Assembly (NCBI GenBank): GCA_036677065.1
Contig: JAKFBS010000011.1
Location: 64,001-128,000 of the forward strand
Source: Bdellovibrio sp.
GTDB taxonomy: Bacteria > Bdellovibrionota > Bdellovibrionia > Bdellovibrionales > Bdellovibrionaceae
Direction of reading: 5' to 3'
Length of the DNA stretch: 64,000 bases
This document shows, in pieces, positions 20,797-23,122 of the stretch. The notes under the pieces were generated by a model that was given only the letters and a program-made list of their open reading frames with translations, was not told the origin of the DNA and did no database searches. The position numbers and the translations under genes are program-made. Every line of letters begins with the position of its first letter. The stretch's first letter is position 1.

Positions 20797-21174
20797 ATGA
20801 ATACAAGTAAAAAAGTTTTCGCGACTTTAAGTTTATTAGTTGCAGCTGTTGTTACAGTTGCAACGTCTCAACAAGAAGAAACTGAATACTCTTATTTTGG
20901 CGCTGCTTCAAACTGCCCTAACAGAACAGTAACGAATCAGGCGATTAGCACTGCATATGGTTCAATTGTTACACCTGAAGGCATGACCTTTGTTGATTTA
21001 GGCCTGCCAAAAACCACACTGGATATTCCAGCTGAAACTATAGTTTCAGGCACTATTGCTGGTGGTTTAACTCGCGTTTGCACGTACTCATTAAATACAA
21101 CCAGCGGCACATTACACGTGTATAGTTGTTCAGATAACAACAACCCTGTTTGCGCAGTTACCTTTACTCCGTAA
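20797..21174 (+). CDS. Small secreted protein; hydrophobic N-terminus ending 'VATS', 4 Cys
   Basis: SD GAGG; MNTSKKVFATLSLLVAAVVTVATSQQ. Confidence 0.7.
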   Translation: MNTSKKVFATLSLLVAAVVTVATSQQEETEYSYFGAASNCPNRTVTNQAISTAYGSIVTPEGMTFVDLGLPKTTLDIPAETIVSGTIAGGLTRVCTYSLNTTSGTLHVYSCSDNNNPVCAVTFTP

Positions 21175-21586
21175 TAAAAAATCTACGGCCAAAGAAATAA
21201 CACGCAAGACTTATGCTTAGGGCGATCAAGTCTGTGGGATCACTAGTAATGGCAATCGCAAATACATGATCCGAAAACCACTGCACGAATAAGTCTTTAA
21301 CAGCTGAATTTAATTTCATTACACAAAACACGGCGTCAGTTAAGACTATCGCTGTTAACAATAACCCGCGATTAAAAACAAAGTCTTTACGAAACAACCG
21401 CACTAGCAACACGACAACAGCACACAGAAATAACGGAAAATAAAATAACCCCGTAAAATCCGAAAGTTTACCGGTAATCATTCCAGGAAATTGATATTTT
21501 AAATAATGATCATTCACCGCTGTAAGAACCACAGCCAACAGTGGCAACGGATGAATAAAAAAATGAATCGGCTTAAATGAGTTCAC
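21164..21586 (-). CDS. Small integral membrane protein with NDHxLK / TGKLSD / DPxDL motifs
   Basis: About 4 hydrophobic segments with polar motifs; GTG start 7 nt after TGn-TATAGT. Confidence 0.75.
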   Translation of the reverse strand: MNSFKPIHFFIHPLPLLAVVLTAVNDHYLKYQFPGMITGKLSDFTGLFYFPLFLCAVVVLLVRLFRKDFVFNRGLLLTAIVLTDAVFCVMKLNSAVKDLFVQWFSDHVFAIAITSDPTDLIALSISLACYFFGRRFFITE

Positions 21587-21612: not shown

Positions 21613-21647
21613 AAAATAAAAAAGGCCGATCCTAAGATCAGCCTTTT
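21613..21647 (-). terminator. Rho-independent terminator
   Basis: Minus strand AAAAGGCTGATC-TTAG-GATCGGCCTTTT followed by TTATTTT. Confidence 0.8.
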
Positions 21648-21674
21648 CAAAAATTTCGAATGTTAATTCAAAAA

Positions 21675-23051
21675 TTATTTTTTATCGAAGAATGTAGCGC
21701 GTGTGAATGAAGTCACATCAACGATACGGCCTAAACCTAAATCTACACGAATAGAATTAGCCGATAAATTTAATAATTCGCCGTCATTAGTTAAGCCAAC
21801 CATAGTGCCAGCTGCTTTATGAATACGTTTTACGTCTGCATCAACGGCTACGTTGTTAGCAGCAGTAATTTTACCAGTCGTGCCTTCACAAGAGATTTTT
21901 ACTACACCTTTAGTTGTATTAACATAAGCGTAGTTTTTCTCTGGAGTGTAACCTTCTGTGTAAACGATTGATAAGGCTTCACCACCACCAAGCTGAACTT
22001 CGTTAGCTTGAGCTGGGTTTTGACGTTTATCACAGAAAAATTTAACTTTAGTTTTTTCTACACGAGCATTCCATGTCCATGCGAAGTAATAATCAACAAC
22101 GTTTGCACGAGTAGCCACATTGTCATTGTATTCGCCAGAAAGTGGAGAAATTTCGCCAGTCTGGAAAATTCTAGACATAGCTAAGTTTTTATCTTCAGGA
22201 ATGAAAACTAAACCCATTTTGCTTTTTGCAAAATGACCGTAGTTTTCAGTTTTACCGATTAAGTTAGCTGTTTTTAGCTTAGCATCGATTTGGTACATTT
22301 CACGATCAGCAGTTAAAGCCAAGAAAGCTTCTTCTTTATTGATAGTCACTGGAGTTTGGAATGCTTCAGCAGCGTAAATTAAAGATGATGCTTGAGCTAA
22401 TGCACGGTGTGCAGGGTGAATGTCTTTACCGTAAGCGCCAAGTTGTGCGTAAGTTTCAACTGTTACAGCGTATGAACCTGCATCAGAGATTTTTTTATCA
22501 CAAGCGCCGTTTAAGCCAGCACGAGGACCTTGCGAACAAGTTACGTGTGGGTAACCTTCGATGTGACGTGCTTCATGCATAAATACAGAAGCTAAATCAA
22601 GCGGAGTAAATGCAGGCGTTAAAGCCATCGGGCAAACGTGCATTGTGTTTTGGTGAAAAAATCCGTAAACGAAAGCGATCACACCTTGTGGACAAGATTT
22701 TTCGATAGCGAAAGTTTTTACTAAGTTAGTTGTGTATTTATACCAGTCACCAGCAAAAGTGCCTTTGAATAAATCATCAGGGCTATTTGTCATAGGCTGA
22801 GTGAATTGCACTTTACGGATGTAGTGGATACCCGCAAGTAAGTAAGCTTCTTCTGAACCATCATTGCAATATTCTTTGCCTGATAATTTGGCGAATTGTT
22901 TAAAATCTTTCGCGATTTGAGTCATGTCTGCTGCAGGAATACAGCTGCCTGCATCTGTGCCTGGAGTTGGCTCTGTGATTGGGCCGATGCCGATTTGAGC
23001 TTGTGCTGATAAAGAAAAACCAAGCACTACTGCTAATAATAATTGTTTCAT
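21675..23051 (-). CDS. Secreted zinc metalloprotease-like protein (metzincin motif)
   Basis: Signal peptide MKQLLLAVV; 'HEARHIEGYPH' = HExxHxxGxxH. Confidence 0.7.
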   Translation of the reverse strand: MKQLLLAVVLGFSLSAQAQIGIGPITEPTPGTDAGSCIPAADMTQIAKDFKQFAKLSGKEYCNDGSEEAYLLAGIHYIRKVQFTQPMTNSPDDLFKGTFAGDWYKYTTNLVKTFAIEKSCPQGVIAFVYGFFHQNTMHVCPMALTPAFTPLDLASVFMHEARHIEGYPHVTCSQGPRAGLNGACDKKISDAGSYAVTVETYAQLGAYGKDIHPAHRALAQASSLIYAAEAFQTPVTINKEEAFLALTADREMYQIDAKLKTANLIGKTENYGHFAKSKMGLVFIPEDKNLAMSRIFQTGEISPLSGEYNDNVATRANVVDYYFAWTWNARVEKTKVKFFCDKRQNPAQANEVQLGGGEALSIVYTEGYTPEKNYAYVNTTKGVVKISCEGTTGKITAANNVAVDADVKRIHKAAGTMVGLTNDGELLNLSANSIRVDLGLGRIVDVTSFTRATFFDKK

Positions 23052-23122
23052 GTGACTGCCCCCCTTGGTGTCGCCAAAGAGTTCACCCCAAAATGGAACC
23101 AGTTTCAACAAGATTTCGTTAG

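Follow-up and report, generated by a model that had tools for sequence, protein, structure and literature searches.

Organization of the locus

The window, a 64,000-nucleotide stretch of contig JAKFBS010000011.1 of Bdellovibrio sp., contains two convergent genes whose features are collected in Table 1. One codes for a 125-aa protein (hereafter, the partner) and the other for a 140-aa membrane protein. A preliminary description of this DNA had ascribed to the partner an N-terminal hydrophobic segment that ends in ATS and lacks a lipobox cysteine, and to the 140-aa protein about four transmembrane segments with the motifs NDHYLK, TGKLSDF and DPTDL; an 11-nt overlap of the 3' ends of the two genes was also described. 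The ORF list and the sequence agree on the partner, the overlap is present, and the three motifs are found at the positions listed in Table 1, in a protein whose structural model was read as four membrane helices.

Table 1. Features of the two-gene locus and its immediate surroundings (positions are those of the window).
Feature	Coordinates	Strand	Source
Gene of the 125-aa partner	20797..21174	+	ORF list
Codons for A22-T23-S24, end of the hydrophobic helix of the partner	20860..20868	+	ORF and sequence
Gene of the 140-aa four-helix membrane protein, GTG start	21164..21586	-	ORF list
NDHYLK (N25-K30), near the outer end of helix 1	21497..21514	-	sequence, alignment, model
TGKLSDF (T38-F44), outer start of helix 2	21455..21475	-	sequence, alignment, model
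DPTDL (D116-L120), outer start of the last helix	21227..21241	-	sequence, alignment, model
11-nt tail-to-tail overlap of the 3' ends of both genes	21164..21174	convergent	ORFs and sequence
Terminator-like hairpin between the genes of the 478-aa protein and the membrane protein	21619..21648	-	context only

The plus strand upstream of the pair carries ORFs that, as read from their translations, are leuS-like and arginine-decarboxylase-like. On the minus strand, the gene of the 140-aa protein is preceded by a gene of a 478-aa secreted protein (21675-23111), with the terminator-like hairpin in between. The 478-aa protein has an ordinary signal peptide (…AQA followed by Q) and an H-E-x-x-H motif (HEARH). 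It matched neither Pfam nor NCBIfam families and, judging by its sequence, could be an unclassified secreted metalloprotease. Its gene is not kept beside the pair in the other Bdellovibrionota loci examined.

The membrane protein represents a large unnamed family

The AlphaFold2 model of the 140-aa protein (pLDDT 92.5, pTM 0.83) contains helices at residues 13-32, 36-63, 73-92, 94-107 and 117-134, which we read as four membrane helices and one short helix in the third loop. Since basic residues follow helix 2 and are also present at the C-terminus, both termini are predicted to be cytoplasmic by the positive-inside rule, which would place NDHYLK, TGKLSDF and DPTDL at the outer membrane face. 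When 43 diverse family members were aligned, N25, K30, G39, K40, S42, D43, D116 and D119 proved invariant, and D26, T38 and T118 nearly so. The Asp residues to which the preliminary description drew attention are thus conserved, as Asp43, Asp116 and Asp119, and the same holds for N25, K30, K40 and S42.

An exhaustive search retrieved 3196 representative clusters at E ≤ 1e-3; at E ≤ 1e-10 the number was 394. A Pfam domain is present in none of the 68 homologues of similar length, and neither the 140-aa protein nor any of the 43 relatives matched Pfam at E ≤ 1. When NCBIfam was searched together with Pfam, no family was found for the 140-aa protein, the 43 relatives or 16 long forms; the only traces were of the BNR type, far below the cut-off, in two exported domains. 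Profile searches against sequences of solved structures gave nothing below E 0.4, and a Foldseek search of the PDB with the four-helix model gave no match at E ≤ 1e-3. VIA-align wide returned generic helix bundles only, with a best Z of 8.0 for the four-helix model and 6.1 for a fused five-helix model. In the ESM Atlas, the membrane protein falls in unnamed clusters. All homologues are named "hypothetical protein" in the source records, except for two fused Actinomycetota forms that carry names of beta-propeller or BNR-like repeat proteins. The portions of the full-text literature that were reached by concept and by motif contained nothing relevant to the family. The family can be described by the motifs N-D-x3-K, G-K-[LI]-S-D and D-x-[TS]-D, all of which are present in the 140-aa protein, together with a fused or neighboring helix that ends in A-[TS]-x and precedes an exported domain, as is seen in the pair from the window and in its relatives.

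The partner protein

The N-terminus of the partner consists of Lys-Lys followed by a hydrophobic stretch of about 18 residues that ends in A22-T23-S24. There is no cysteine among residues 1-39, and the helix is followed by a domain of about 100 amino acids with four cysteines. The 28 homologues found all belong to close relatives. In their alignment T23 and S24 are invariant (28 of 28), T20 and A22 are nearly so, L13 is conserved and the remaining residues of the hydrophobic segment are variable. The partner was assigned to no Pfam or NCBIfam family. With Ala at -3, Ser at -1 and Gln at +1, the sequence around ATS satisfies the -3/-1 rule, so that on sequence grounds the site could be cleaved by signal peptidase I.

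Two side observations concern the partner. First, its N-terminus weakly matches DUF6520 (E 0.16), and the ESM Atlas gives the same weak lead. A Flavitalea genome (Bacteroidota; L096-L101) has six DUF6520 matches; the five that were read are small Cys-rich proteins, four with signal ends of the form A-F-A/G-[ST]-[ST] and one with I-A-T-K; these ends may be only an ordinary A-x-A cleavage site. Second, an Asn-x-Thr/Ser triplet recurs 15-40 residues past ATS, as noticed by eye: it reads N-A-T in Bdellovibrionota partners and N-R-T in the partner from the window, and N-x-T/S likewise occurs at the start of many Myxococcota exported domains.

In most surveyed relatives the two parts are fused

Species-representative genomes were scanned with a 14-row alignment as a query. 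The scan found 363 relatives, and 80 loci were kept; all 80 carry the exact peptide LTGKLSDFA and are, therefore, a biased sample of the family, in which raw counts are also inflated by related genomes (for example, about twelve Sorangium loci). The loci span at least eight phyla, among them Myxococcota, Chloroflexota, Actinomycetota, Planctomycetota, Bacteroidota, Acidobacteriota, candidate division GN15 and Bdellovibrionota.

According to a rule-based classification, 53 of the 80 loci are fusions, in which a single frame codes for the membrane domain and, joined to it, for a fifth hydrophobic helix and an exported domain that varies. The fifth segment of these 53 ends with exact ATS in 39 cases, with another A-[TS]-x sequence in 11 and with neither in 3. 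A further 21 loci are short stand-alone genes and four code for a cytoplasmic helical tail and no fifth helix. The rules missed the remaining two, one of which has an upstream ATS partner, while the other looks fused, with a segment ending A-T-G. The preliminary description had mentioned, for other phyla, a membrane domain joined to an ATS-ended helix and an exported domain, and this pattern was recovered by the survey.

The same architecture was seen among the best 150 representatives (211 family proteins were examined), 14 of which are long proteins with a fifth segment. All 14 are composed of the four-helix domain, a basic loop, the fifth hydrophobic segment and a large further domain; the segment always ends in A-[TS]-x, and in eight of them in exact ATS. 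Additional Actinomycetota fusions are built in the same way. The exported domains vary widely: some, in Chloroflexota and Actinomycetota, are BNR-like with extra membrane helices, others, in Myxococcota, are unrelated, and a short one occurs in Bacteroidota.

Several individual loci deserve mention. The tail subclass (L015, L021, L037 and L063; P0056-P0058 and P0064), found mostly in Myxococcota, has all of the motifs plus a cytoplasmic helical tail of about 90 amino acids that begins …[VI]P-x-G-R-[LI]…; none of the four loci has a fifth helix or an ATS partner within the flanks. In two Anaerolineae-type fusions (L045 and L072), the fifth helix lacks A-[TS]-x altogether and the core motifs deviate too, with NDF or NDQ for NDH, Arg for Lys and DSGD for DPTD; the sequences of these two cases hint that the helix end and the core motifs may change together. 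In Sorangium cellulosum So ce56 (L024:3400-3640), an in-frame stop follows one residue past ATS (…ATSK, stop) and the exported domain resumes in the same frame, while other Sorangium strains read through. The stop may have arisen by nonsense mutation or by an error in sequencing, or it may be a site of read-through.

Most stand-alone genes are accompanied by a separate partner

Out of the 21 short stand-alone genes, 16 have a credible separate partner gene nearby, whose product starts with a basic residue, a hydrophobic run and the motif. The helix end is ATS in 14 of the partners, ATT in one and GTS in one. Partner genes are located upstream, downstream or in convergent orientation, 15 of them within 1.3 kb and one at 2.95 kb. 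A 17th flagged partner, at the So ce56 locus, was rejected as an off-frame artefact, the gene's own frame carrying the fifth helix and ATS, then the stop. At four stand-alone loci, no ATS partner was found nearby.

The family was found in 7 of 301 genomes of the phylum to which the window belongs. In all five Bdellovibrionota loci with enough flanking sequence, a convergent overlapping partner is present, and its helix ends in (V/A)ATSK; the sixth locus ends at a contig edge. The overlap is 10-61 nt in the four other Bdellovibrionota loci examined. Since the same convergent partner is found in five of five loci, the pairing goes beyond chance. The genes of the pair carry adjacent locus tags in two public genomes. 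The genome of the window has one copy of the family gene and five other genomes have 1-2 copies each. No third gene family recurs among 115 neighboring ORFs, and the pair thus looks self-contained. Two of these ORFs (L033 and L060) code for membrane proteins similar to protein O-mannosyltransferases of the PMT/TMEM260 type, which is too few for an association; they are noteworthy because the conserved residue is Thr and is followed by a Pro-rich stretch.

Specificity of the ATS ending

We searched six-frame translations of the 80 loci for 11 uncharged residues followed by ATS. Within 1.2 kb of the family gene there are 55 occurrences, spread over 51 of the 80 loci; the remaining 266 kb contain 12. 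Three of the 12 distant matches are further genuine-looking partners and seven are one off-frame artefact common to related Sorangium loci. When 19 control tripeptides were substituted for ATS, 0-7 matches each were found near the gene. As can be seen, the association of homologues with ATS holds in fused and split relatives across phyla.

We also considered whether ATS is a genome-wide sorting signal and rejected this possibility for the genome of the window, where the extended motif at a signal-like N-terminus is found solely in the 125-aa protein. Among 1225 signal-like N-termini of this genome, ATS ends an uncharged run in two, the 125-aa protein and a protein with a lipoprotein-type G-C-A-T-S sequence; the commonest signal end is AFA (30 cases). 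The genome has a single gene of the membrane-protein family and a single ATS protein.

Comparison with known systems

LspA is a small four-helix inner-membrane protein with conserved Asp at the outer face that acts at the end of signal peptides. The 140-aa protein is of similar size and likewise has four helices and conserved Asp, predicted to lie at the outer face. We nevertheless rejected its identification as LspA: neither the protein itself nor any of the 43 relatives matched PF01252 at E ≤ 1, and the partner has no lipobox cysteine. LspA is also not listed among VIA-align wide fold matches of the four-helix or the fused model. Three true PF01252 (Peptidase_A8) matches, with 89-138 bits, are located elsewhere in the genome, on contigs C1, C2 and C3. 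The resemblance to signal peptidase II proposed in the preliminary description was thus not supported, there being no Peptidase_A8 match, no LspA in any fold search and three ordinary LspA genes elsewhere. Three LspA matches above the cut-off is in itself more copies than expected for one genome. Nor was a Peptidase_S26-type (signal peptidase I) family matched by the 140-aa protein at E ≤ 1 in Pfam or NCBIfam.

In the exosortase/PEP-CTERM, rhombosortase/GlyGly-CTERM and archaeosortase/PGF-CTERM systems, a motif, a helix and a basic cluster strictly co-occur with one membrane family, and such pairs of sorting signal and membrane enzyme are often encoded by adjacent genes. Here, too, a motif, a helix and a basic cluster are tied to one family, in a mirrored, N-terminal form, with a nearby partner at 16 of 21 stand-alone genes and at five of five Bdellovibrionota loci. 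In contrast to those systems, the signal is N-terminal, fusion is the commonest arrangement and there is one target per genome. No homology of the 140-aa protein to exosortase, rhombosortase or archaeosortase enzymes was detected in Pfam or NCBIfam.

Bacterial VKOR-thioredoxin fusions and DsbB/DsbA systems consist of a four-helix core, a fifth helix and an exported domain, which are fused or separate depending on the species. The five-helix module proposed here may be compared with them in its architecture only. Conserved Cys pairs are absent from its membrane core, for which sequence and fold searches gave no match, and the fifth helix of VKOR/DsbB-type systems is not known to carry a conserved end motif. 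Finally, the N-terminus of the partner resembles a Sec signal peptide in that a basic start is followed by a hydrophobic stretch, with small residues at -3 and -1 (A-x-S). Unlike in Sec signals, conservation across phyla extends to the motif and to a helix face of small residues, both linked to a single membrane-protein family, and Pro follows the motif in 25 of 63 fused helices.

The ATS helix as a possible fifth helix of a split module

For a profile, 63 distinct fifth helices of fused forms were anchored on A-[TS]-x, which predetermines the counts of A and T/S in the motif itself. Numbered from the Ala of ATS, position -10 is Ala in 39 of 63 helices, -6 is Ala or Gly in 55, -3 is Ala in 53, -2 is Cys, Thr or Ser in 54 and +2 is Ser in 48; Pro occupies +3 in 25, and Pro-rich residues follow. 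Since the small residues are spaced 3-4 apart, they would fall on one face of the helix, as in a packing interface. Proline at +1 blocks signal peptidase I; a fused helix with Pro directly past ATS would not be cut by this enzyme, and the sequence therefore looks like a retained tether. Among the 16 credible split partners, Pro follows ATS in only two. In the AlphaFold2 model of a fused Flavobacteriales protein, the fifth helix spans residues 129-143, with ATS at 144-146; pLDDT is about 95 at residues 131-140, as high as in the four-helix core, and below 50 in the exported part. A complex prediction for the pair from the window (score 0.01, mark 0.32) was counted neither for nor against binding.

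From the fused and split architectures, the conserved A-T-S helix end and the invariant polar residues of the four-helix protein, we arrive at a reading to which we give about an even chance: the 140-aa protein and the first helix of the partner would form a split five-helix module, in which the ATS helix docks as the fifth helix and stays as an anchor. The helix profile, the Pro tether, the model, the fusion majority and the 1:1 ratio all favor a stable five-helix module that is split in the genome of the window. In particular, the fusion majority, the 1:1 ratio and the small residues along the whole helix favor a stoichiometric partner over a multi-turnover processing enzyme.

In such a module, the ATS-ended helix would dock onto the four-helix protein and anchor the exported domain. 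By the positive-inside rule and the model, NDHxLK, GKLSD, DPTD and the A-T-S of the partner are all expected at the periplasmic face of the inner membrane. Because the motifs and A-T-S would share this face, the Thr/Ser hydroxyls would lie at a pocket of Asn, Asp, Lys and Ser residues, possibly completing it; this placement of ATS is taken from topology alone. The ligand of this pocket could be a cation or the head group of a lipid, or the pocket could be catalytic, and the exported domain of about 100 amino acids would be held at the membrane beside it. The membrane face carries eight invariant residues that are charged or polar, which is more suggestive of catalysis or ligand binding than of simple docking. 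Counted against docking are the hydrophobic segment of the partner, which with about 18 residues is short and compatible with signal peptidase I, and the eight loci (four of the tail subclass and four stand-alone) that lack a nearby ATS partner.

Possible alternatives: dedicated processing, transient docking or ordinary export

Binding of the ATS helix by the four-helix protein is required not only by docking but also by dedicated processing, in which the four-helix protein would be an enzyme that recognizes the ATS-ended helix and, at the outer face, cleaves beside the conserved Thr or attaches something to it; in fused relatives it would act in cis and once only. We regard such processing as possible but somewhat unlikely. 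The invariant Asp, Lys, Ser and Asn, which alignment and topology place at the same membrane face as ATS, are what one would expect of it, as is the hydroxyl residue that follows Ala in all 63 anchored helices (positions fixed by the anchoring), and of the 65 fused forms that have a fifth helix only 3 lack A-[TS]-x. The layout of the signal, with basic residues, a helix and a short motif, mirrors that of known sorting signals, the coupling is strict across phyla, and the fifth helix is as short as in cleavable signals (about 15 residues in the model). On the other hand, most relatives would then be enzyme-substrate fusions, i.e., wasteful single-turnover enzymes, and the genome of the window offers one candidate substrate only. 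Conservation spans the whole helix rather than one site. The Chloroflexota exported domain is followed by more membrane helices, so that its release cannot be the purpose there. Moreover, searches of Pfam, NCBIfam, folds and solved structures revealed no similarity to any known peptidase or transferase family. In its broadest form, this explanation would add a third, Cys-independent kind of signal-end processing to signal peptidase I and Lgt/LspA: tiny four-helix enzymes from at least eight phyla that cut or covalently modify the invariant Thr, in cis when fused and in trans on a single partner when split. We consider this extension doubtful.

Docking could also be transient, the four-helix protein shielding A-x-S from signal peptidase I or exposing it, or signaling through the membrane, and thereby regulating release of the exported domain. 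The partner from the window, which fits the -3/-1 rule of signal peptidase I, is compatible with this scenario, and the cytoplasmic helical tail of about 90 amino acids in some relatives hints at communication with the cytoplasm. No σ factor, kinase or other signaling gene, however, recurs beside the family among the 115 neighboring ORFs, and we consider transient docking improbable.

We find it hardly credible that the partner is merely exported by the Sec route, with cleavage by signal peptidase I after A-T-S, and that it neighbors the 140-aa protein by coincidence. In favor of such ordinary export, A-T-S fits the Ala-x-Ala-type rule and the partner family is confined to close relatives. Against it, the association with ATS extends to at least eight phyla and to both fused and split forms, whose exported domains are unrelated and whose genes take three orientations; it is specific when compared with 19 control tripeptides; and T23 and S24 do not vary among the 28 partner homologues, whereas neighboring signal residues do.

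Implications

With 3196 clusters at E ≤ 1e-3, the family is a large one; it spans at least eight phyla, and the searches made, which covered Pfam, NCBIfam, solved structures and the accessible part of the literature, returned no record of it. Its one constant companion is a membrane helix that ends in A-T-S and carries very different exported domains. As a naturally split pair, the two genes found here in a Bdellovibrionota genome offer two separate components with which one can test whether the helix is held, cut or modified. Should the helix be cut or modified, the pair would represent a new class of signal processing; should it be held, as in the stable five-helix module, it would be a modular membrane anchor of a new kind, equipped with a conserved polar pocket.
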